This document shows, piece by piece, positions 4,306-37,068 of a stretch of 64,000 nucleotides of DNA (within the stretch, counting starts at the first letter, position 1; the number at the start of each line of letters is the position of its first letter). The DNA comes from an uncultured bacterium (lineage in GTDB: Bacteria > Muiribacteriota > Ozemobacteria > Ozemobacterales > Ozemobacteraceae). The notes below the pieces were generated by a model. The model saw only the letters and a list, made by a program, of their open reading frames with translations. It did not search any database and was not told the DNA's origin. Where the stretch lies: positions 6,414-70,413 of the forward strand of contig CAZADH010000003.1 of assembly GCA_964483805.1 (NCBI GenBank). Direction: 5' to 3'. A program made the position numbers and the translations under genes.

Positions 4306-4363
4306 CAGAGGCGACAATCGGATTTGAACCGATGAGTGACGGTTTTGCAGACCGTTGCCTTAC
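4306..4363 (-). repeat. 58-bp direct repeat identical to the 3' part of tRNA-Cys (anticodon stem to acceptor 3' end plus 3 nt): putative attachment-site duplication (island left end)
   Basis: Sequence cagaggcgacaatcggatttgaaccgatgagtgacggttttgcagaccgttgccttac is identical to 20635..20692 inside and just 3' of the intact tRNA-Cys gene; the 5' part of the tRNA is absent here. Confidence 0.8.
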
Positions 4364-4416
4364 TACGTCCCTGGAGCGCCGCTCCATTAGCGACTTTCAA
4401 TGGTTGCACAGAATAC

Positions 4417-4463
4417 ATCGTATGGATGTCGATCGTGGTGGTCGAACGCGACTGCTCCACAGA
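4417..4463. promoter_or_regulatory. Copy 1 of a ~48-bp conserved element (…cgtatggatgtcgatcgtggtggtcgaacgcgactgctccaca…) upstream of hicAB
   Basis: About 85% identical to 5161..5210, which sits upstream of the vapBC-like pair; a sigma70-like -35/-10 (TTGACG 4480-4485 / TAATAT 4501-4506) follows before the hicA ATG at 4516. Confidence 0.5.
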
Positions 4464-5117: not shown

Positions 5118-5160
5118 GTCGACAGCAGCGCCAGAAGTGGGTTCTCGCAGACCCAGAGCA

Positions 5161-5210
5161 TACGTCGTATGGATGACGTTCGTGGTGATCGAACGCGACT
5201 GCTCCACAAA
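5161..5210. promoter_or_regulatory. Copy 2 of the ~48-bp conserved element, upstream of the vapBC-like pair
   Basis: tacgtcgtatggatgacgttcgtggtgatcgaacgcgactgctccacaaa; paralogous to 4417..4463. Confidence 0.5.
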
Positions 5211-6438: not shown

Positions 6439-7460
6439 CCACCTTCGTGGTTGTCGTGTTGGTCCCGGCGGGTATCGGTGAGTATCTCAGGTGGAATAGA
6501 AACCCTGACATGGCGACCAATGCGTTGGCGGCGGCCCAGAACCATTGGGCGGCCAAGAACTATGACGGAGCATTGGCGGTCTACGATTACGTGATCGCCA
6601 ACGACCTCGACGGGGTCGATGTGGCTGAGGCCAGCCGCTCTGCTCTGCTCGATCTGCGGTACTCGTGGTCGAGCACGCTGAAGAGCGGTGTGTCCGGCTA
6701 TGTGACGGGCGAGATCGAGGATGGTGCCTCGCTCGTTGGTTGCGTGGCCGCCGATCTCACGGTGGTGGGCGATGTCCGGGACCTGATCAAACAGGGTTAC
6801 CGGAAGCTCACCGGTGGCGAGGTCGATACGATCAATGCTGCCTTGTCGGCGGCGGGATTGGGGATGACCGTGCTGCCGGAGATCGGCGCCGGCATCTCGA
6901 TCTGCAAGCAGATGCTGAAGTTCATGAACCCAGCGGTGAAAGCCCGTCTGGTGAGGCTGATCGAAATGGCCAAGGAAGCCAAGAATGCGACGGATCTGGT
7001 GGCATTCGCCGAGGATATCGGCAAAGCCTACGGCAAGATCGGCACTGGCATCTTCGGGGTCCTGCGCTCTGCAGGTAACGCCGAGGAGCTAAGCACGATC
7101 CTGAAGGTCATCGAGGCCGGCGGCAAGAAGAGCTACGCTGTTCTGCTGATTGGCGGCAAGGCTGCGACCGAGTTCATGACCGAAGCGATGAAGCAGGGTG
7201 TGGCGCTGACCGGCACTGCCGGCAAGCACGCGTTACGCTTCGGTCTGCAGTACCCGAAACTGGGTGTGCGTTTGGCGAAGATCACCAAGACGGTCGGCTG
7301 GGACCACTTCGATGTGGCGGTGATCGCTGCGGCTGACCTGCTGGCGAAGTTGTCGTTGCAGACGACTTTGCTGGCCGGGTTGGCGGTGTGGCTGTGGTTC
7401 CATTGGCTTGACGTACTCGGGCTGATGGTATTCCGCAGCCGGAAACAAGCGGTGGCGTGA
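6405..7460 (+). CDS. Hypothetical membrane-anchored protein
   Basis: 351 aa; N-terminal TM helix (VWLVTTFVVVVLVPAGIG) and C-terminal hydrophobic helix; otherwise no recognisable motifs. Confidence 0.5.
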   Translation: MLARIKKVWLVTTFVVVVLVPAGIGEYLRWNRNPDMATNALAAAQNHWAAKNYDGALAVYDYVIANDLDGVDVAEASRSALLDLRYSWSSTLKSGVSGYVTGEIEDGASLVGCVAADLTVVGDVRDLIKQGYRKLTGGEVDTINAALSAAGLGMTVLPEIGAGISICKQMLKFMNPAVKARLVRLIEMAKEAKNATDLVAFAEDIGKAYGKIGTGIFGVLRSAGNAEELSTILKVIEAGGKKSYAVLLIGGKAATEFMTEAMKQGVALTGTAGKHALRFGLQYPKLGVRLAKITKTVGWDHFDVAVIAAADLLAKLSLQTTLLAGLAVWLWFHWLDVLGLMVFRSRKQAVA

Positions 7461-7483
7461 GCTGCCGCTTGGCAGTAAAGGAA

Positions 7484-7508
7484 GGCGGGTGATGGGCCCG
7501 CTTTTCTT
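7484..7508 (+). terminator. Possible rho-independent terminator (gcggg-tgatgg-cccgc + TTTTCTTT)
   Basis: Short GC stem followed by a T-run after the 6405..7460 gene. Confidence 0.35.
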
Positions 7509-7590
7509 TAGCGGTCGGTGCGGTTGGGAACGGACAAAGAGGGAACAACCTATGCCCTGGGCCCCGGGCTGGTGGGGCTTACCACAGCCC

Positions 7591-7887
7591 GTTACCTGGC
7601 ACCCCAAAAACAGGTAACGGAGGGCGACCCCACACCAAGCCGCACAAACAGAGGACAGAGAGCAGATAGAAATACATTATGTTACCTAAGTTACCTGTTT
7701 CCTGATGAGGGTGTCTACGTATGTGGGCTTCTGCGTGTGTCTCTTCACCCACCAAATACATGGTCATACACACGCACACGTGTATATACGGAGTGCCTCG
7801 TCGAAAAACAGGTAACATAGGTAACAGGGGGTGATGAAAATGTCGTTGAGTGGCTCTGGGAGCGAGGCTATGGCCGTTACCTGTCTG
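7591..7887. promoter_or_regulatory. ORF-free region A with clustered CAGGTAAC/GTTACCTG boxes, including palindrome GTTACCTG-N12-CAGGTAAC (7591..7618)
   Basis: Boxes at 7591-7598, 7611-7618, 7681-7687, 7690-7697, 7809-7816, 7820-7825 and 7876-7883; same box order and orientation as region B (11481..11905). Confidence 0.6.
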
Positions 7888-7981
7888 CAAAAAAACGATA
7901 GGAAATCAACGACCCGTGCAACGCATGGCATCCGACGTATTGCCTCAAAACCCTGGCGGGGACGTGCCAGCCTACCCACCG

Positions 7982-10900
7982 TCAGTTTGCGTTCTTCACT
8001 ACTCTGAAGCCGGTCCACCGACTCTTGTAGGTCGGCGAAACACCGTTTCGCCAAGCGGCCCGGCAGTATTCGGCACCGTTGTCGATGCTGCCTCCCCTGT
8101 AGACCCGGCCACTGCCGGACGATGGGCCACGGGGATCGGCTGCACTGCCGCTCTCGTATTGCGTCGCGTACCAATCCCAGCACCACTCCCACACGTTTCC
8201 AGCCATGTCGTAGAGGCGATTCGAGTTTGGGCGGGACGTCCCGGGCACGTGCGTGGTCGCGCCACTATTGGTCGAATACCAGCAGTAGGCACCATCTATT
8301 GAACCGCCCCAGAAATAGGCAGTGGTTGAGTTCCCGCGATACGAGCCCTCCCACTCAGCTTCGGTTGGCAAACGATAACCGTTCGCATCCCAGTCGCACG
8401 TCACAACGTCACCAACGGCAATGGAAGTGGCGCCGGCCTGGTTTCGGTAGGCAGGAACACAGCCAAGGCGCACGCTCAATGCATTGCAGAAATTAACTGC
8501 GTCGAACCACGAAACCTGCTCAACAGGGCGAGACAGATCACCCGTGAAATACGATGGATTGACCTCTGTCACCGCTTTGTACTGCGCCTGGGTCACTTCA
8601 GTCGTCGCCATCAGGAAGGCCCGACTGATAGACACCTGATGTTGCGGCCCTTCGGAGCTTGACCGATTTGACTCGTCCGCTGGGCTCCCCATCGTGAACG
8701 TGCTCGCTGGAATTTGAACGAAAGCCATCGAAGCTCCGCCTCCGAGATCAGCTACACTCACTCCAGCCAGTTTCGCAATCTCCGAAGGAGTAAGTTGACG
8801 GTTGAAGACGCTGACATCATCAATCTCTCCCTGAAAGTTAGTTCCTGCATAGAACGAGGAACCAAGACGCATCCCCGTCAGGGCTGGGGCTGTAAGCATG
8901 CTTCCTGTATAGGAATTGCTGGCGATGAGAACCCCGTCCAAGTAAGTTGCCATCCCCTGTGAACCCCACGTCCCGACAACGTGAAACCAGCGTTCCACCG
9001 TAGGTACCCTGCCAGTGTCGGCCCATCTCCACCCCAATGGAGGTGGCGCGTAGACCCCGAACATCAGAGTATTCCCGCCGAACGCACCAATACTGAGGAG
9101 ATCACCCGTGCTTGTGATGCCAGAAAACACGTGAAGACCTTGCGTGGCCGTCCGAATCCAACTGGTCGGTTGGAACCACATTGAGATGGTTCCTGCCGTG
9201 AAGCCATTGATGATGGCAGGAAGGCCACCCTGCTTGTTACACCATCAAACGAAAAGGCGGAATTGACTCTGCCCCAACGGTCGATCGCAGGTGTCGTGTT
9301 CACTGCAACTCCGTCACGCCCAAGCCCTGATGCATCATTCGCGTTGCCATCCAGTGGATAATGAGCGACGAGGCCATCCGTCACGCCAATGTCCGTGCCA
9401 CCGTTAGTTCCCGTGCCTGCCTGCGCCGACAGACGGGTTACCTTCACTTCCTTATACCCCAGCCATACATTGTCTGCGACATTCGTCATCACACAGAATC
9501 CAACAGTCTTGGTCATGCCGACGGGAATCCAGCTGATGTCGAAGTCTGCACTCCGCATCTGCACCGAAGAATCGATGTTCAGAAAATCGTGCCCGTGGCT
9601 TGTGGAGTCACAGTAGGAGTAGAAGTAATATTCGGGGGAACCCGCCCCTACCGAAAGAGCGGGAACCCCAATGCGAATGGTCGTCGAACTGGTCGCGAGT
9701 CCGTCAAGGGGCGTCACCTGGCCATTCGAGACCGTCTTGAAGTCGAGATCAGGGTGTCCGACGAGACCACCCCGAGCCACATTATCAAAGACATCGCCGA
9801 TTGAGTTCCAGTCGATTAGCGATGCCTTTGCTACCAACGTGAACCTTGTGAACATCACGGGCATCTGTCCTTGACTCGGATTCAGTCGCATCTCGACAGG
9901 TTGGATCTGTCCGTTGGTGAACGTGGTAGACCGCTCAATGCCAGGGTAATTCGGGTCGTAGAACCAGATGGTTGACCCGTTCGCGCGATAAACAAGCAGC
10001 GCGTGTCCGTGACCCCCCTGCGCATCCGCTACCCCGAGGAACAGGGGTGCCTTCGTCACCCGCAAGGCTGCTTTCATAGCAGCAAAGGTAATCGTATGAT
10101 TCAGATCGAAACCCGTGCCGTGCACAGACGATGATTTCTGGAGGCGCGAGCAAAACCTGATTGTTTGGGCGTCATCCTGCCAGGCCACCTTGGTGGAATC
10201 CGAGTTCCAAACCGTCGTGCCGTTGGTCCAGAAGTTGTAGAGGGACTGCCCGCCTCTCCCATATCTCTCGTAGTACCAAGCGGCACCGAGCGTCATGCCC
10301 GTGCAGATACCACCTTGCGACAGACTCGAACCGCAATTCTCAGTTCGCCATCCGTCACGCTGTGGCCGAAATCCCGTGTCGACGTCGGGCGAGATGACGT
10401 CAGCGATCGGAAACGCGATCACCGCGATCGGGAGAATCGTGGGGAGAATCGTCACCAACCCACGTCGACTCGGAGAGGTCGACGAGTTGACCTGCGTGGA
10501 AAATGTGAGCTGTCCGTTTGAATAGCCGGTCACAGGCAGCACCGTGACGGCCCCCGTCGTCGGGTCGGTCTGGACCGCAAGCGCAATCTCATCCTGACGG
10601 GCGGTTGTCGGTACGGTGATTGAGACGGGACCACTACTCGGAACACCGGTTGATTGAACGACAATAGCAGGGGCCACTGGTCGTCCAGTGCTTATCGGCA
10701 GAGACAGCGAACTGACGCTTGCACAACTGACCTGGAGCTGGGTCGGCGTCGAAAACGCACCGGCGGGAATGTCAATCTTGAGCCCGGTCAGCGGTGATGC
10801 AGCAGTAACCGTAACGGTCTGCGTGCCCGTGGAAGCGCTGATTTCTTGCACGACCGTTGGCGTCTCAGTCACCACAGTCGAGAACGGGACACCATCAGTC

Positions 10901-11460
10901 TGCCACAAACTGAGCAGGCTTTCGACGGCGGCCGAACTGGCTCTATCAACTCGGGAAATGAGCGGAAACAACTGGCCACAGGCACCCATGCGAACCTTTG
11001 CGAACAAAACCGGGTTGGCAACGACATCGGCAATGCCATGAAAATCTGATTGGCCTGCAATTTGCCCACCCTCGACACGGATGGAGGCGATTGTCGGCAG
11101 TGCCAAGATCTGGAACGTGGCCTCGACAACACCATTCGTGACCGAGACCGTTTGCGAAGCCACGATTGTCGGTGTGGCCATGTTGCCCGGTTGAACAGAC
11201 GTGATTACAAAGGTCACGGTCGGGTTTGTCGTGGTCGTCGCAACCTGAAGGGACGCTCGCCCATTGTATGAATCAACCTTGAGAGAAAACCTCAACGCCG
11301 CATGCCCAACGTTAACAGGACTCGTTACCAAACCCTGGATTTGACCGGGAGAATCCGAAAAAGATACCCCAGTGGACTCCTGGGGCAAACACCCCGCCAG
11401 CACGAGCACAAAGACAATACATACGCCCACGAGGGCGATCGTGAGGATCCTCTGTTTCAT
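7982..11460 (-). pseudogene. Frameshifted gene for a ~1160-aa surface lipoprotein: lipobox signal peptide + Ig-like/beta-rich region + C39-like cysteine peptidase domain + LamG (concanavalin-like) domain + FGE-sulfatase (formylglycine-generating-enzyme family) domain
   Basis: ORF 9064..11460 (signal ...VLVLAGC; CTGMTLGAAWYYERYG ... GGHGHALLVYRANGSTIWFYDPNYPG resembling C39-like peptidases) ends inside a LamG domain (...SFDGVTSRVAFLP). The domain continues in another frame (AIINGFTAGTISMWFQPTSW...) into ORF 7982..9181, which ends with FGE-sulfatase motifs (GYRLPTEAEWE...YDMAGNVWEWCWDWY...RGGS). A single-nucleotide indel near 9215-9218 restores one reading frame. Confidence 0.7.
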
Positions 11461-11480
11461 GGTCGGTCTCCGGGTTGAGT

Positions 11481-11905
11481 GAAGTTACCGGGGGTAACTA
11501 ATGGGGTTCTGGCACCACGATATCATAAGACGGCGGCGGGGTGCTCGGACCACCGAGACAGATTCGCCGACAGGGGATTGTATGCACATGCATACTGCCA
11601 CTCGGGACATTATTCCCACGGAATACCACGTCACCAGGGCGCCAACGTCAGCGCCAGTCACCTGGGGTTGCCTCCGGTTACCTGGTGAATCTACAAACAG
11701 GTAACCGTCATTGACCCCATTGGGGGACCTATGAACAGACGGAACGCAACAACCATAAGAAGATAGATTACCTGGGTTACCTATTTCTTTCATACATACC
11801 CTATACGTATGGGCGCTCTCTCCGCCCCCCCCCCCGACCACGTGCGACATAATACGTATAGGTGGGTGTGTGCCTGCCGAAAACAGGTAATCCAGGTAAT
11901 CCGGA
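11481..11905. promoter_or_regulatory. ORF-free region B upstream of the lipoprotein gene with clustered CAGGTAAC/GTTACC boxes, including palindromes GTTACC-N3-GGTAAC (11484..11498) and GTTACCTG-N13-CAGGTAAC (11677..11705)
   Basis: Further boxes at 11767-11782 and 11884-11900; paralogous arrangement to region A; contains the presumptive promoter of the 9064..11460 gene. Confidence 0.6.
11825..11835. repeat. Homopolymeric C11 (G11 on the coding strand of the downstream gene) tract
   Basis: Eleven consecutive C at 11825-11835 inside regulatory region B, ~365 bp upstream of the lipoprotein start codon. Confidence 0.8.
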
Positions 11906-12002
11906 GCAGGCAGGGTGGTGCCTGATGGCTTCGGTAGCAGATCCACAAACATTACCGATTGCCGGCGAGAGATGGGTAATCAACGGAGAATCGTGCTTTG
12001 CC

Positions 12003-12617
12003 TTACTTCAGGAACGGCAGCATGAGCCGGCGCACGTCGGCGACGACGGCGGCATCGATGGACTGCAGTTCCTGGATGATTCTCGGCCAATTAGTTGGAT
12101 ACAGGAAGCGAGTGTGAACAACCTTGATGTCGAGAGAACGAATCCTATCCATTAAGCGGTTTTCGCCCTCAGCAAGTTCCTTCTTGTAACCACTGCCGAT
12201 GATGACAACACCAACCCGGGTCTTCACAAATGGATGGGCGGCCAACGCGTCAACATGGGCCCGGATCTTCTCCGGAATGCTCGACCGTATCTCGTCTTTG
12301 TCTTGTCGTTCCATGCGGAGCGGTATCGGAGAGATGTCTGCAAAGGCAATCGGGCTACGCTCGTTGCCAGGGCCGTTGCCAAGTAACCGAGCCTTCAACT
12401 CTCGGGTAGACAACTTGGGATCAAGCAGTTCGCCGATCAACTTGTGCGCTGTGTTCCAGAACCCGCACCTTGGTGTGCCTTTAAGATCGTAGGGGCCAAT
12501 GTCCGGGCCGCCTTCGCCCAAGAAATTCGCTTCTCTCCCCACCACGAGAATCATGTTTTTGAAACCTGGCACCAGTTGGCCGTCGCCCAGAACCGAGATC
12601 ATTGGATGTTTGCTCAT
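12003..12617 (-). CDS. Hypothetical protein (possible Rossmann-like C-terminal half)
   Basis: 204-aa ORF in an operon-like arrangement downstream of the sigma-54 activator; no confident domain assignment. Confidence 0.45.
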   Translation of the reverse strand: MSKHPMISVLGDGQLVPGFKNMILVVGREANFLGEGGPDIGPYDLKGTPRCGFWNTAHKLIGELLDPKLSTRELKARLLGNGPGNERSPIAFADISPIPLRMERQDKDEIRSSIPEKIRAHVDALAAHPFVKTRVGVVIIGSGYKKELAEGENRLMDRIRSLDIKVVHTRFLYPTNWPRIIQELQSIDAAVVADVRRLMLPFLK

Positions 12618-12689
12618 CCGACCCTCCTCTCCTATGTTGAAGGTGCCAACGAAATTCGCACATGGCGATCCGTCGCGCAGAACAAGGGT

Positions 12690-12949
12690 TCACTCCAGCG
12701 CCACTTTGATGACAACCCGCCGTTCACCTGGAAGAATCTCGATCTTCTCGATCTTTCCAGGCCACTCGTCAAAGGTCATCCGCTCAACGAATCGGCCGCT
12801 GTCAGCGTCGATGAGGCGCAACAGATCGTTCGCAGAGGCACGCCGCGCAGGAACAGATGACCCCTTCCGGTTGGTCTTCACAACAACCTCGTAATCCCCC
12901 TCGTTTCCGAACACGAAATGATACTCAGGCATGATGGCCCTCCGTTCAG
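12690..12949 (-). CDS. Hypothetical small protein
   Basis: About 86 aa (MTERRAIMPEYHF...); lies between the activator gene and the 12003..12617 gene on the same strand. Confidence 0.35.
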
Positions 12950-12972
12950 TCATACTTTGGGCGTTGATCGGC

Positions 12973-14604
12973 CTACTCGTTCGCCAAACGTTTTCGCAAG
13001 GTGTTCTCCGCCACATCCAGTGTCTTTGCAAGCGTCTTGATCGGAACATGACTCCACCGCTTCCGGACAGCACCTACATACTTTCGCATGACGGCATCAC
13101 ACGTGGCAGGTTCCGGCAAGGTCGCAACAAGTTGGTTGATCGCCTCATCCACCGTGCCCGACGGACAGTTCGTTGCAAGCGCAGTGCCGGCCCGTGGCTC
13201 TGACCGGCCTGAAGCCCCTTGTCGGGACGGATCCGTTCCGCAGGAAGTGCGTTTGGCGTCCTGCATTCGTTCACGAAGCTCATCGATGACGTCTCTGCTC
13301 TTGCCCAATTGCAGGTGGACCTTCACAACCGACACAAGTTCACGAAAGTTGCCGGGCCACGAGTAGCCCTTGAGAACATCGAGATTCCGAGTGAAGAAGC
13401 TCAATGCCTCATCGACGGTGATATGGCGTTGTCCCTCGCGGATGTATTTACGAAACACTACATGTCTTATGACACGAATGATGTCATCGGGCACATCGCG
13501 CAGGGCCGGGGTGCGGATTACGACGTCGGCGATTCGAAAATAGAGATCGCGACGAAGCGTACCGTCGTGCAGCATATTCTGCATGCGAGGCTGGCCAGCA
13601 GCGATGATGCGAACATCCGCTTGCTTCTCATCAGTCCCACCCACCTGGCGGTATCTGCGTGTTTGCAGAAAACGCAGCAAATCCGCCTGCACGGCTGGGG
13701 GCATGTCCGGCAACTCGTCGAGGAACAGCGTTCCACCGTTCGCCTCGCCGATTAACCCTTTGGTTGTGGAGTGCGCCCCGGTAAATGCACCCTGCACATG
13801 CCCGAACAGCTCGGATCGCAGGATCTGCTCCTGTAGACCAGCACAGTTGATCGCAACGAACTTCTTGCCGCGACGCCGACTGAAGTCGTGCAGAAAGAAC
13901 GCCGCGGCTTCCTTGCCCGTACCCGTTTCCCCGATCAACATCACCGACAGGTCGCTTGACGCTACTGAAGCGACTTCGCTCTTGAGGCGGTTGATGGCCG
14001 GAGTGCAGCCTGCAAGGAATGGCAGGCCCGCCTCATGATAGTGTGCCACCGCCTGTTGGAGCGTAGGGCCGATCTGTTTCTGAAACTGATCGCTTCCCGC
14101 CAAACGCCTTACTGTCTCAACTGCATCACGCATCAGCGACGGAGATTCAAACTGCATTAGACATCGATCAGCCAGGTAGTTGAGGATCATGAACAAGGCC
14201 TCTTGATTACTGGCGAATGCCTTGCACACAGGCGTCCACGCGGAACCTGGTCTGAATAGCCTTTCCCCGGCGGTGACCAGATCCGGAGCAATGGAATTGC
14301 GCACACCAATCCCCTTGAAAAACGAGGCGTTCAGCCTGCCATACTTGTCCGACCCAACCCACGTGACATCCGCCTTCCTTGCCAGGTTCTTCAATAGACG
14401 CCGTGACTCGTCGATCCGGCGCACATCTTTCAGAAAAATCACGATCTCGCGAGCAGGCGGTTTCTTGCACCACTCAGGCAGAACCTCCAAGATTGCTTTG
14501 CTGCCGACGTTCACGATCTTGTCGGTCGGAACGTAAACCATCGCAGCGGCGATTAGCCCCTCTGCGTCAGGACTGATTGCGAGTATCCGATCGCGTGGTG
14601 CCAT
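12973..14604 (-). CDS. Sigma-54-dependent transcriptional activator (bEBP, NtrC family) with an atypical ~230-aa N-terminal sensory domain
   Basis: AAA+ sigma-54 interaction domain with Walker A (GETGTGKE), the GAFTGA motif, an arginine finger and a C-terminal HTH. The N-terminus is not a canonical receiver. ATG 14602-14604 with AGGAG RBS preferred over the GTG at 14634. Confidence 0.85.
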   Translation of the reverse strand: MAPRDRILAISPDAEGLIAAAMVYVPTDKIVNVGSKAILEVLPEWCKKPPAREIVIFLKDVRRIDESRRLLKNLARKADVTWVGSDKYGRLNASFFKGIGVRNSIAPDLVTAGERLFRPGSAWTPVCKAFASNQEALFMILNYLADRCLMQFESPSLMRDAVETVRRLAGSDQFQKQIGPTLQQAVAHYHEAGLPFLAGCTPAINRLKSEVASVASSDLSVMLIGETGTGKEAAAFFLHDFSRRRGKKFVAINCAGLQEQILRSELFGHVQGAFTGAHSTTKGLIGEANGGTLFLDELPDMPPAVQADLLRFLQTRRYRQVGGTDEKQADVRIIAAGQPRMQNMLHDGTLRRDLYFRIADVVIRTPALRDVPDDIIRVIRHVVFRKYIREGQRHITVDEALSFFTRNLDVLKGYSWPGNFRELVSVVKVHLQLGKSRDVIDELRERMQDAKRTSCGTDPSRQGASGRSEPRAGTALATNCPSGTVDEAINQLVATLPEPATCDAVMRKYVGAVRKRWSHVPIKTLAKTLDVAENTLRKRLANE

Positions 14605-14623
14605 TGAGATGCTCCTGGTCAAG

Positions 14624-14644
14624 AGTGTTATCACAGAATAACAC
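14624..14644. promoter_or_regulatory. Perfect palindrome GTGTTAT-N6-ATAACAC overlapping the 5' end / promoter region of the activator gene
   Basis: 7-6-7 inverted repeat seen directly; ~20 bp upstream of the preferred ATG. Confidence 0.5.
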
Positions 14645-14806: not shown

Positions 14807-16369
14807 TTAGCTTTGGCGAAGGGCCGACAAACCCGCCAAGAGTCTTCTTCCTGCCACAACCGCCGAAGGGTGGGCGCGCGTCGCACACGGAAGACCGACT
14901 AATTCTGCGGTCGCCCGCTGCCATTCGGACAGTGTCTCTGACGCAGCGCTACCGCACCCGGACCGAACGGCCTGAGCCGCCTTCTTCTCGCCCTCAGGCT
15001 CTTCCGTATTACTCTCTGCAACCCCTTGGATTACGGCTCTCGGAAGCCCCAGCACGCGCCCTGTGAGGACCAGAGCCGACGATCTGCTCCGCCTCAGGAT
15101 CAGGCCGGCACGAACGGCATACTCCCCACCGATCGCACTGATAATCCGATCGACGAGTTCATCCCGCCTGCTGGCGTCCACGTCGAGATCCAAGGATGGG
15201 ACCACAAGCCGTTTGCGGTCAAGAAACGTGCCGGTCCCAGGGCCTCGACCAGCGGAACAGTCCGCAGTCAGCCCGAGGACGAAACCAACCAGGCATGATC
15301 CCGCCGATCGGTGAGGAGGGAGCACCGCGATATCCATTGCTTTAGCGACGTCCAAAATCTTCGCACCAAGAATGAAATACTCTGTAAGGCCGAGGTCGTC
15401 GATGGCACGCAGTTCGGTTTCGAGCAGGCGAAGGTGCGTGTGGCCAAGGCCGCGCAGACTCAGACCAGCACGGCAACGCTCGGCCAACTCGCTGAGTAGG
15501 TCGTTGTCAAAGCGCAGCTTGGGTAGCGTGAGCGTTCCCAGATCGAGGTCGACAGAGCACAGATCTGCAACGCGTCGTGAGTTGGCCAATGCTTCCGGGA
15601 TGTCGCAGAATGTTGCAGCCATTTCCTTGCCAGACTTCAACCAGAACTCATCGGTGGGGAAGTGAACTCGGGTGGGGTCGTCGATGGTCGCTCCTGTCAC
15701 GCCTGCCAGCAAGATTTCGTGGGCGCGGGCATGCTCCCTTGTCACATAGTGCACGTCGTTGGTGGCCACGACGCCGACCCGGAGGCGCCTGGCGAGCCCT
15801 AGGAGTTGCGGCATCAGACCTCGTTGCTCAGGAATACCATGGTTCTGGAGCTCGATAAAGAATCGGTCGCGCCCGAACAGGCGGGTCCATTTTTCGAGCG
15901 CAACCTCAGCATCTTTCTGCATTCCTCGCAGGAGAAGACCTGGAATCTCTCCCCACAAACATGCGCTAAGCCCAACCAATCCGCGACAATGTTGCGCCAG
16001 GAACTCGAACTCGACATGCGGTCTCGACAAGGAACCGCGATGGGCCCGGGTCACCAGCGCAATCAGGTTTTGGTAACCAGTCGAATTCTCGGCCAGCAAT
16101 ACAATGTGTGTCACGCTGATCGGGGGGCACGCCTCACTCCGTTCGCTGCCAACCGTCAGCTCAATGCCATGAATCGGTTTGATTCCGCGTTTCTTGGAGG
16201 CAACGTGGAAAGCCACCGACCCTTGGAGCGTGTCATGGTCGGTCAGAGCCAGAGCGGACATTCCCATTGATGCGGCCGCATCGGCAAGTTGGCCGACTCT
16301 TGCGGTGCTGTCGCCCATGCTGTGCTCGCTGTGAACGTGAAGGTGGACGAAATCGTTACTCGTTCGCAT
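14807..16369 (-). pseudogene. Truncated DNA polymerase III alpha (DnaE/DnaE2-like) N-terminal fragment: PHP domain plus the beginning of the palm
   Basis: HLHVHSEHSMGDS...LALTDHD PHP metal-binding motifs; ORF is only ~520 aa versus >1000 aa for DnaE and stops with no downstream continuation in any frame. Confidence 0.6.
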
Positions 16370-16630
16370 GGTCCCTCCGTTGCGTTCTCTCGTCGTCACC
16401 ACCCAGCCAAGCAACTTTCGGGCCACGCAAGATCTTCAACTGGAATTCAGCGAATCGCTGCACTTCGCCGGCCTTGAGCGGCGACAGGTAGGTGCGCGGC
16501 GCGTCGCTGGCGAGAGCAATCGGCGTGATGTGCGCCGCTATCCGGTCCAATGCCTAGATGCCCCGCCTTGCTGCAACAGAGCCGCATAGTCATCGGCAAC
16601 CGTGCAGCAGGTTTGGGCCACTACTTGACC

Positions 16631-20613: not shown

Positions 20614-20637
20614 TTCGGACGGACTGACCGCCAACAG

Positions 20638-20709
20638 AGGCGACAATCGGATTTGAACCGATGAGTGACGGTTTTGCAGACCGTTGCCTTACCACTTGGC
20701 TATGTCGCC
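20638..20709 (-). tRNA. tRNA-Cys (GCA)
   Basis: Reverse complement folds as a cloverleaf with 7-bp acceptor stem, T-loop GGTTCAAATCC and anticodon loop CTGCAAA; no encoded CCA. Confidence 0.85.
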
Positions 20710-30250: not shown

Positions 30251-31705
30251 CTATTTGCCGAGGTGTTTTGGCCGCACGATATAGCGGTCGGGATCACGGA
30301 GCACATTCGTCGCGCAATGCACGTCGCCCCAGAGCTTGTGATAAGGCGTGTCGTCGATGAAATGCGGGGTCAGGCCAAACCGGGCCACCGACGCGCGAAT
30401 CGAGTCGCGGAAGAGCTTCATCTTCGGGTCGGCGATCACCAGGTGCTTGCGCAGGATCAACTGATTGATGACGCCCGGCAGGTAACCGAGGTAACGGTTG
30501 TTCTTCTTGCCATACAGCATCGGAAACGAAATGATCGAGTGCGCCCGTGAACCGAGGCGGTGCACCTGGTTGATGCGGTCGCACAGCTTATCGACGTTTT
30601 GGTCGATGACACCGGCCAGGGCCAGGTTCTGACGGATGAACAGATCGGCGGTCGTTTTCGAGAACTTCTCGGGGGTGTTCATCGCCCCCGCGAAGGTTAT
30701 CCGGGGAAACCGCTGCCCGCCAGCGTAACCCGAATACGGCTCGTATGCACGAAGTAAAGACACCCACCGTTTTGCGCTCTCGTGATCAGAGTGCAGATAG
30801 TCGTATAGAAACAGCATCTGCTCGCGATATTCTTTCAGTTGAATGTTCTCGATCTCTTCGCGATCGGCATCGAGGACGAGTTTCAGTGCCAACGCAGGAT
30901 CGCCTTTGACCAGCGTGAAACCTTCGCCGGTCTTGTCGTTCGGCACGATCGACAGATACTCATCGCAATGCCCGACGGTCAGCCAGTCGGCCTCGACCTC
31001 AATCATGCGGTCGCGGTAGCCGCACTTCGCAAACAGCTCGCGAAATTCAGGGGTAATCGTATTGCCAACCACGAGCACATCGCACGGCGTCACTTCGATG
31101 TTGCCGCCCATGTCACCACCGCGGGGTTGTTGGCTCGGATTCTTCAGATAGCAGGCGTTCCAGCTCTTGGTCAGGGCCGGCCCCACCAGGCCACCTTCAT
31201 AGAACATCATCGAGGCTGCCGACCGATTGGCATCGAGAATGAGCAAACGCGGCTTCTCCTCACCGCGCAGCTTGACCGTGCCGATTTCGCCCCAGTCCTG
31301 CATCCAAACATCGCTGTCGATCTTGAGCGGTGCCTGTTCGACAAATCGCTTCATCGTGTCTTTGCCCAGTTCCTTTTCGAGCACATCAAAGGTCTCCTGA
31401 AAGGCACCGAACACCATGACCTTGAAGCTGTCGGCCCCACGCAGGCCATCGAGTTCGTGGATCTTGGCAACAATGCGCACGAGATTGGCCACGAATTTCA
31501 CCGTCTGCGATTGCCAACTGGCAACGACCAGTACCTTGATCGGCAGGTTGTTCGGGCTGAGCAGACGAATGCTCTCGATGTCGGCCAGCTTGATCTCGGG
31601 GACCGACGCATCGGTCTTCGGAGACACGGCAAAGACGGGGGCGATAAACGTTACGGCCAGCAGGGCCAGGGCCACAACAAGGGTTCGGGTGCTCGATCGG
31701 ACCAT
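30251..31705 (-). CDS. Secreted protein-arginine deiminase (PAD)-like enzyme, vertebrate-type PAD catalytic domain
   Basis: Signal peptide (MVRSSTRTLVVALALLAVTFIAPVFA); VGHCDEYLSIVP and WGDVHCATNVLRDP closely match the PAD catalytic His and Cys segments (FGHVDEFLSFVP / GEVHCGTNVRRKP); strong GAGGAGGG RBS. Confidence 0.65.
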   Translation of the reverse strand: MVRSSTRTLVVALALLAVTFIAPVFAVSPKTDASVPEIKLADIESIRLLSPNNLPIKVLVVASWQSQTVKFVANLVRIVAKIHELDGLRGADSFKVMVFGAFQETFDVLEKELGKDTMKRFVEQAPLKIDSDVWMQDWGEIGTVKLRGEEKPRLLILDANRSAASMMFYEGGLVGPALTKSWNACYLKNPSQQPRGGDMGGNIEVTPCDVLVVGNTITPEFRELFAKCGYRDRMIEVEADWLTVGHCDEYLSIVPNDKTGEGFTLVKGDPALALKLVLDADREEIENIQLKEYREQMLFLYDYLHSDHESAKRWVSLLRAYEPYSGYAGGQRFPRITFAGAMNTPEKFSKTTADLFIRQNLALAGVIDQNVDKLCDRINQVHRLGSRAHSIISFPMLYGKKNNRYLGYLPGVINQLILRKHLVIADPKMKLFRDSIRASVARFGLTPHFIDDTPYHKLWGDVHCATNVLRDPDRYIVRPKHLGK

Positions 31706-36061: not shown

Positions 36062-37068
36062 GCGTTCTCGTTCCATTTGGGTACCCATGGGTCCTCCTGT
36101 TTGGATTTGGGACGGCCTGCGGCATGTTTGACCGTGGCCAGGAATACGGGAATTTTGGTCGCACCGGAGACAACCTGCCAGTCGTCGAGCGCGAGCCCGA
36201 CTTCGCGGCAGGACTGGGTCAGACCGGCGCGCGGAAAACCGCACACGCGGTCGTGGCATTTCTTGGCCAGGGCGCTGTCGTGGTGCTGATCGAAGTCGAG
36301 AATGATCATGCGACCCCCGCGCCGAAGCACGCGAGCGACTTCGGCCAGGACGGGCCGGACATCATCGAGGTGATGAAGAACCATCGAGGCGACGACCAGG
36401 TCGGCGCTGTGGTCGGGCAGGGGAAGGTGTTCGAGATCACCGAGTCGAAACTGGATATCGGCACGGCCGCCCTTGTCGGCTCTTTTGCGGGCGGCTTTGA
36501 TCATGGCCTCGGCCCGATCGATGCCGATGTAATGGCGCCCCTGGGGCAACCCACACAGCAGTCGGCCGTCTCCGGAGCCAAGATCGACAATCGTCTCAGC
36601 CTCGCCAAGCATACGTTGTATGACAGTTACCTCGTCGAGCTTGCCCAGGTAACGATCGCGGACCTGATACCAACGGGGGCCGATCTCTTCACGTTCGGTG
36701 GCGAGTCGGCGTTCGCGTTCTTCGAGGCAGGTGCGGGCCCGCCCGAGATCGTGGGGAAAGAATGCGGGATCGGGTGCCGAGGCGGCCAGGACATCGAGGA
36801 GGCCGGGGTGTTCGGGAGACGTGGCAACCGGGCCGGGAAGAAGCGAGTAGGCGACGCGCACGCCCTTGCGGGTAGGCGTAATGAAAGCACAGTCGGTGAG
36901 AACGCGCAGATGGCGGGAGGTTCTGGGTTGCGAGACCCGAAGGACCTGGGCCAGTTCGTTGACCTCGAAGGGTCCGAACAACTGCAACACTCGGATGATG
37001 CGCAGGCGGGTTTCGTCGCCGAGCGCTTTGCAGCCGGCAAGAAAGTGGCGGATGCTCAGGCGGTGCAT
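36058..37068 (-). CDS. ArsR-family HTH regulator fused to a class I SAM-dependent methyltransferase
   Basis: N-terminal ArsR/SmtB HTH ([13 protein letters not shown]...[22 protein letters not shown]); C-terminal MTase motifs ([11 protein letters not shown] ... RMIILDF); ATGA overlap with ahcY. Confidence 0.75.

Follow-up and report, generated by a model that had tools for sequence, protein, structure and literature searches.

Two gaps that are poor in open reading frames (ORFs) lie on either side of a lipoprotein gene in the genome of an uncultured bacterium of the Ozemobacteraceae. The stretch analyzed here, referred to as the window, comprises 64,000 nucleotides of contig CAZADH010000003.1, and the gaps are found within it at 7461-7981 (gap A) and 11461-12002 (gap B). 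Both belong to a 16.3-kb island that is enclosed by repeats of tRNA-Cys sequence and has a lower GC content than its left flank. The island also encodes a sigma-54 activator, a truncated DnaE-like polymerase and several ORFans, and the lipoprotein gene itself is frameshifted. Each gap contains an ordered array of short boxes, called module A and module B. Module A is placed between the 3' ends of convergent genes, and module B between the stop codon of a 204-aa ORFan and the start of the lipoprotein gene. The layout of the boxes, and the recurrence of this layout next to primase-helicase genes in other sequences, suggest that A and B are probably two copies of a widespread iteron-type replication-origin module of the kind used by phages and their satellites.

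The boxes are strongly overrepresented and follow a fixed layout. The motif CAGGTAAC is found 13 times in the window against an expectation of 0.65 +/- 0.9, a 20-fold excess that is reached in none of 100 dinucleotide shuffles, and seven of the 13 copies are in the two gaps. Similarly AGGTAA is found 31 times, with 5.4 expected. Mapping of all GGTAAY/RTTACC sites gives a 7-bp box core, AGGTAAC/T, that is repeated with a 9-bp period. Modules A and B each consist of eight boxes, which are arranged with dyad symmetry over about 310 bp. The order in each module is an inverted pair (IR1), a tandem pair, a centre of about 100 bp, an inverted tandem pair and another inverted pair (IR3), or - + - - centre + + - + when written by orientation (Table 1). 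The elements that the initial annotation had listed for the two gaps are all present where it placed them. IR3, the third inverted pair, lies 3' of the right tandem in both modules and is new. In addition, three details of that annotation are revised. The left tandem of module B exists, but its first box is ATTACCT and not GTTACCT. The right tandem of B is also present, with its sequence corrected so that it has the same 9-bp period as all the others. The TACGTAT motif occurs once in A, to the left of the centre, and twice in B, where the copies form an inner palindrome.

Table 1. Position of the module elements and of other features of the island, in window coordinates
Feature	Position	Strand	Remarks
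Distal att-like copy of the 3' part of tRNA-Cys	4306..4363		Left island boundary; perfect 58-bp repeat
Module A, IR1	7591..7618		GTTACCTG-N12-CAGGTAAC; exact matches; 78% alignment to 11674-11705
Module A, left tandem iterons	7681..7697		GTTACCT-AA-GTTACCTG; 9-bp period
Module A, centre	7698..7808		GC 0.50 vs 0.58 in flanks; inner palindrome 7715-7740 / 7768-7793
Module A, right tandem iterons	7809..7825		CAGGTAAC-AT-AGGTAAC; inverted relative to left pair
Module A, IR3	7876..7906		GTTACC-N19-GGAAAT; second box degenerate; followed by conserved ATCAACG
Lipoprotein gene between the modules	7982..11460	-	C-terminal Laminin_G_3 and FGE-sulfatase domains; N-terminal 798 aa are ORFan
Module B, IR1	11677..11705		GTTACCTG-N13-CAGGTAAC
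Module B, left tandem iterons	11767..11783		ATTACCT-GG-GTTACCT
Module B, centre	11784..11883		GC 0.55 vs 0.57 in flanks; C11 run; inner palindrome CCTATACGTAT / ATACGTATAGG
Module B, right tandem iterons	11884..11900		CAGGTAAT-C-CAGGTAAT
Module B, IR3	11951..11980		ATTACC-N18-GGTAAT, then ATCAACG; ends about 20 bp from stop of 204-aa ORF
204-aa ORFan	12003..12617	-	Stop abuts module B; site taken by helicase gene in relatives
Sigma-54 activator gene	12973..14634	-	GAFTGA motif; Fis-type C-terminal helix-turn-helix (HTH); RtcR-like AAA core
Truncated DnaE-like polymerase gene	14807..16426	-	539 aa; PHP and part of palm; phrog_405
tRNA-Cys gene	20637..20709	-	3' 56-58 nt repeated at 4306-4363; right island boundary at 20635..20709

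The comparison of A with B shows that the boxes and their spacing have been kept. The modules are 4.09 kb apart, in direct orientation and with the same layout. Their four box sets are collinear, and the distances between successive sets are 94/94, 124/113 and 91/90 bp in A/B. Identity is 79-81% in the box segments, whereas in the spacers, centre and flanks it is 0.53-0.58, which is the level of shuffled sequence. Because the boxes and the geometry are conserved and the rest is not, the constraint is on the boxes and their spacing, and the likeness does not reflect a transcript or a recent duplication. This pattern argues for protein-binding sites on duplex DNA. The general idea of the initial annotation, that the arrays are recognized by a sequence-specific DNA-binding protein, is thus supported, as boxes and spacing are all that A and B have in common with 26 other sequence groups described below. 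Mechanical ORFs within the gaps, such as 11485-11952, have no family matches.

The centre of module A contains a 26-nt alternating purine/pyrimidine run and is presumed to be the unwinding region. On both strands, the unit formed by the two tandem pairs and the centre between them is predicted to form a very stable hairpin, at -57 to -69 kcal/mol and with z values of -4.8 to -7.7, and this stability is due to the inverted boxes and the local inner palindromes.

Box pairs with the geometry of the module parts are also found inside two other, ordinary genes of the window. A PAD-like gene contains AGGTAAC-N2-AGGTAAC at 30480-30495, and an ArsR-HTH/methyltransferase gene contains GTTACCT-N14-AGGTAAC at 36626-36653. 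The probability of each under random placement is estimated at about 0.002. The PAD orthologue in loci L249 and L250 is without the tandem pair.

Clusters with the same architecture are found in diverse viral and metagenome sequences. They were identified with a composite pattern, TTACCTNNRTTACCT-N90-120-AGGTAAYNNAGGTAA, which describes a tandem pair, 90-120 nt of any sequence and an inverted tandem pair. Given its 25 fixed bases, essentially no matches are expected by chance. It matched seven viral and 48 metagenome loci (55 in all). One of the matches, L218, represents region A of the window itself in a different assembly; it is a metagenome contig that is 99.6% identical to the window. Besides the two modules of the window, the loci form 26 groups according to the sequence of the centre, and they are on contigs with GC contents from 0.27 to 0.71. 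All of the related clusters have two to four boxes per side, a 9-bp period and the box logo A-GGTAA-C. Most of them have extra outer arrays, also with dyad symmetry; the largest group has the layout + + + - - - centre + + + - - -. Across the family the GC content of the centre averages 9.6 points below that of the flanks and is lower in 68 of 74 cases, and the alternating purine/pyrimidine runs of the centres exceed those of shuffled sequences in length. The centres are generally not self-complementary (median fold z -0.45 among 24 representatives of the family). The layout closest to that of the window modules is found in the high-GC locus L242, which has outer inverted sets, a core of - - -/+ + + and an outer inverted set, and here the cluster directly follows a DUF3854/DUF927 helicase gene.

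A 17-base pattern, AAAACAGGTAANNNAGGTAA, was too short: its matches in genome contigs were mostly due to chance in AT-rich sequence, and the 69 in viral contigs were mostly chance matches as well. No match was obtained when the clusters were compared by blastn with GenBank phages and PLSDB plasmids. Protein searches gave no characterized phage close to the helicases adjacent to the clusters, and no published description of an AGGTAAC/GGTAAC iteron family was found in a literature search.

The clusters are associated with genes for primase-helicases. After clustering and annotation of the surrounding ORFs, an SF3-type primase-helicase gene was found within 1.7 kb of the cluster at 34 loci. In 31 of these the cluster follows the stop codon of the helicase gene, the median distance being 20 bp, and in 29 it is within about 100 bp. 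The adjacent helicases are of several families (DUF927/Cch-like, D5_N with DUF5906, VapE-like and DUF3631), and the primase modules fused to them include Toprim/DUF3854, Prim-Pol, NrS-1-type and UL52-type modules. Altogether the box grammar accompanies primase-helicase genes in at least 14 helicase groups. In the largest group, a family-A DNA polymerase gene follows the helicase gene. One cluster-adjacent helicase matches PDB entries 5DGK, which is Cch of the staphylococcal cassette chromosome mec (SCCmec), and 8TCH, a "pathogenicity island protein". Another matches the C962R primase-helicase of African swine fever virus.

Helicase-less clusters are found elsewhere too. The marine L230 group (8842-9348 in L230; also L202, L223 and L225) has a box cluster without a helicase gene within 5 kb. 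A tyrosine integrase gene and two transposase genes are nearby, and the transposase genes are not adjacent to the cluster. In this group the sign of the GC skew changes within about 500 bp of the cluster.

Several other contigs have similar or variant arrays. Two contigs of 4.4-4.6 kb, L200 and L240, have a Prim-Pol/DUF5906 helicase gene in common, together with arrays of 14 boxes. In one contig the gene precedes the cluster and in the other the order is reversed, which is what a circular replicon of about 4.5 kb would give. The viral contigs L027 (7245-7345) and L032 (1129-1232) have AGGTAAA arrays with 9-bp-period pairs beside a palindrome; these may follow a related iteron grammar in which the last base differs. 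An exception among the chance matches of AAAACAGGTAANNNAGGTAA in viral contigs is L024, a P2-like prophage contig. At 360-670 it has at least eight GGTAAT boxes in both orientations, in the roughly 200 bp that separate a tRNA-Ser gene from the portal/terminase genes, so that a similar box is found in a different context.

The window modules, then, are probably origins of this family. At such an origin, initiator hexamers would bind to the inverted iteron sets, the centre, with its alternating purine/pyrimidine stretch, would melt, and two helicases would be loaded, leading to bidirectional replication. Searches of the 64-kb window with jackhmmer and tblastn detected no primase-helicase and no remnant of one. 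The adjacency of gene and origin that defines the family is therefore absent here, and the modules are orphans. They are probably what is left of one or several replicative elements that have decayed, or else origins that depend on a cognate initiator supplied in trans by a phage or other element. The relic reading is consistent with the truncation of the DnaE-like gene and with the fact that no integrase was found in the 16.3-kb island. The DnaE-like fragment may itself be left over from a replication module of the island.

Besides the missing helicase gene, several points weigh against an origin function. The C-terminal domains of the helicases have no BLAST-detectable similarity across families. 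One 7-mer would have to serve a great many different initiators, and a common binder of another kind is conceivable. The module-like box pairs inside ordinary genes of the window would be easier to reconcile with a chromosomal binding protein than with a phage initiator. In module B, the GC content of the centre is hardly below that of the flanks. None of the 55 relatives has a second module several kilobases away, and the duplication in the window is without parallel among them. GC skew around the relatives' clusters is ruled by the transcribed strand and is uninformative, a sign change near the cluster being limited to the L230 group. A broader version of the origin reading goes further but is doubtful. 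It holds that the AGGTAAC module with its 9-bp period is an origin grammar used across phyla and read by many otherwise unrelated SF3 primase-helicases or by one common factor, and that the island is a replication parasite without an initiator. Its two complete origins would be amplified only upon entry into the cell of a phage or other element that has a cognate helicase, and by analogy with ori and crr of P4, A and B might cooperate.

Other explanations assign the boxes to a different kind of binding protein. Short-repeat arrays on both sides of a central region are also typical of parC-type centromeres and iteron control loci. A and B could belong to some other cis site of mobile elements that is bound by a small conserved protein, such as a partition centromere, an incompatibility or handcuffing locus or a packaging site. 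The window pair would then act as control or hitchhiking sites. The lack of detectable homology among the helicase C termini fits such a protein, the clusters of L189, L190 and L024 are within a few kilobases of terminase or portal genes, and two modules 4.1 kb apart recall ori and crr of P4 or the inc loci of plasmids. This explanation is nevertheless unlikely, since a position immediately after the helicase stop codon is the signature of the ori of Staphylococcus aureus pathogenicity islands (SaPIs), and no ParA-, ParB- or ParR-like gene recurs beside the clusters. In addition, lysis genes sit between the cluster and the terminase gene in L207, and thus the cluster is not at cos. It is quite unlikely that A and B are upstream activating sequences (UAS) or operators through which the sigma-54 activator or another transcription factor controls the lipoprotein gene. 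The activator is a genuine bacterial enhancer-binding protein (bEBP) with a C-terminal HTH, module B is upstream of the lipoprotein ATG, and the extra box pairs are within chromosomal genes. A weak -24/-12-like sequence, AGGCAC-N5-CTGC, runs from 11923 to 11908 on the minus strand beside the right tandem of B. However, this sequence has at least three mismatches, and no -24/-12 site (TGGCAC-N5-TTGC) with two or fewer mismatches faces the lipoprotein gene; the 40 such sites in the window, against 32.6 +/- 5, are as many as chance would give. A sigma-70-like promoter was not found in either gap, and none is needed at module A, as it lies between convergent 3' ends. At four loci (L247-L250) that encode three full-length bEBP homologues with 46-49% identity, the boxes are at background level and there are no clusters. 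The box grammar recurs in phage-like contigs beside the primase-helicase genes and not beside bEBP genes. With homologue loci free of clusters, no good -24/-12 site, and boxes that track helicases, the activator that the initial annotation had singled out as the binder is not supported in that role.

Two further explanations are based on the hairpins. The modules might be two copies of a miniature inverted-repeat transposable element (MITE), or, as the initial annotation had suggested, the paired ends of a non-autonomous element carrying the lipoprotein gene. The units at 7680-7826 and 11766-11901 have terminal inverted repeats of 21-31 nt and near-perfect hairpin folds, and the two copies flank a single gene within a mobile island. 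Both versions are very unlikely, as there is no target-site duplication at the hairpin units, and A and B are in direct orientation, have internal dyad symmetry and differ in their interiors down to background identity. Furthermore, dispersed copies are not seen in the relatives, whose contigs each have a single cluster in a fixed position behind the helicase gene, and transposase genes occur near clusters only in the L230 group. A condition that the initial annotation had set for its own refutation applies in part: the architecture does recur in many unrelated loci, but what recurs is an origin-like module and not a transposed repeat. The hairpin of about 140 nt could also be a structured non-coding RNA or a bidirectional terminator, given that strong hairpins are predicted on both strands and that module A is between convergent genes. 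This is extremely improbable. No Rfam match was found in 6500-13000 except for one sub-threshold chance match to a CRISPR direct repeat, and the centres are not self-complementary across families, so that the fold derives from the inverted boxes alone, which makes a structured RNA unlikely. The 351-aa gene has its own terminator-like hairpin and T-run at 7485-7509, ahead of module A, and the outer box pairs are conserved even though they are outside the hairpin.

The island also carries hicAB and vapBC-type toxin-antitoxin pairs, an Mrr-type nuclease and a Vsr/DUF559-type nuclease. An internal att copy, which would be a sign of tandem elements, was not found in it, and tandem insertion is therefore without support. 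Just inside the left end, hicA and hicB are flanked by 55-nt direct repeats (4407-4461 and 5154-5208, 89% identical), which may mark a small nested cassette. The DnaE-like fragment stops soon after a HAAGVV-like motif, and its gene is directly upstream of that for the sigma-54 activator. The activator has a novel N-terminal domain of about 205 aa, and the best NCBIfam match to its core is RtcR. A 48%-identical homologue in L247 (8001-14190) is encoded beside GmrSD and SNF2-helicase genes, which hints that this bEBP family consists of defence- or stress-linked regulators; a PolIII-alpha gene is also within 8 kb of it.

The 204-aa ORFan has no detectable homology to helicases or any other family, and searches of PDB and NCBIfam with it were empty. 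Homologue searches found nothing for this ORF or for the N-terminal part of the lipoprotein, and viral contigs contained no close relatives of the 204-aa ORF or of the bEBP. An AlphaFold model made from the single sequence of this 204-aa protein was unusable, with a predicted local distance difference test (pLDDT) score of 35.7. The frameshift in the lipoprotein gene, noted in the initial annotation, is real in this sequence: compared with L218, where the ORF is intact, one nucleotide is deleted at 9225. Between the window and L218, 12 of 14 single-nucleotide polymorphisms (SNPs) are packed together with this indel into 186 bp of the lipoprotein gene (9191-9376), and seven of the 12 clustered SNPs are at coding-strand adenines. 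A diversity-generating retroelement acting on the FGE-sulfatase lipoprotein was considered and set aside, as the window has no template repeat or reverse transcriptase gene.

The box grammar has potential uses in finding replication origins. If the origin reading is correct, one short DNA grammar marks the origins of many uncultivated phages, satellites and small replicons. Its elements are two to four AGGTAAC boxes with a 9-bp period, a centre of about 100 bp and inverted boxes, and it would provide a simple sequence handle for locating origins and matching each to its primase-helicase. A question of specificity also arises, since SaPI iterons are element-specific and yet several helicase families adjoin the same 7-mer. 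For this genome, two gaps that had been regarded as regulatory would instead belong to the replication machinery of a mobile island that is decayed or dependent on a helper, and the sigma-54 activator is dropped as their presumed binder. The more interesting by-product of the analysis is the range of helicase families and hosts over which the grammar is found.

Comparison with known systems places the modules closest to satellite origins, with several differences. The UAS of the NtrC family also have inverted repeats near a bEBP gene and upstream of a neighboring gene, as in module B. They differ in that here there is no convincing -24/-12 element, module A is in a gap between convergent terminators, and the loci of bEBP homologues have no box clusters. 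In the SaPI ori, iterons directly follow rep and the centre is AT-rich (PMC9371898). At least two iterons on each side, in opposite directions, are bound by the C-terminal winged helix of Rep, which is a self-loading helicase (PMC9371898). Binding of Rep on both sides of the AT-rich region melts that region. Like the origins of SaPIs and other phage-inducible chromosomal islands, A and B have two or more short iterons to either side of a centre, with the directions opposed. The centre of SaPI origins is easily melted; in module A the centre has a lower GC content than its flanks and an alternating run, and in module B the GC content of the centre differs little from that of the flanks. The position of the iterons right after rep is matched by the relatives (31 of 34 loci) and not by the window modules. 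The helicases of the relatives include homologues of SCCmec Cch (5DGK) and of the "pathogenicity island protein" (8TCH). In contrast to SaPIs, the box is the 7-bp AGGTAAC with a strict 9-bp period, there are extra outer inverted pairs, and the clusters have 8-12 boxes in all. SaPI iterons are specific to the element, whereas the AGGTAAC iteron is common to many helicase families and to hosts with GC contents of 0.27-0.71. The window copies differ further in having no helicase gene and in being present twice.

The duplication has parallels in P4 and in iteron plasmids. P4 has two cis regions a few kilobases apart, ori and crr, which share a short iteron present in both direct and inverted orientation. 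Its initiator, alpha, is an SF3 primase-helicase that binds the origin through a C-terminal winged-helix domain, and the iteron of P4 is TGTTCACC. A and B are alike in being two iteron-bearing cis regions several kilobases apart. The differences are that P4 encodes alpha within the element, while the window has no alpha-like gene, and that the box here is AGGTAAC and not TGTTCACC. Iteron plasmids such as P1 (incA), RK2 and F have iterons of 17-22 bp, usually in direct orientation, and winged-helix initiators of the Rep/TrfA type that need DnaA and DnaB of the host. They too have repeated initiator sites by an unwinding element, and in them a second cluster can control copy number by handcuffing. 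In comparison, the boxes of the modules are 7 bp long, dyad-symmetric and associated with SF3 helicases. Among iteron origins, the probable one of the window is unusual in being both duplicated and orphaned.

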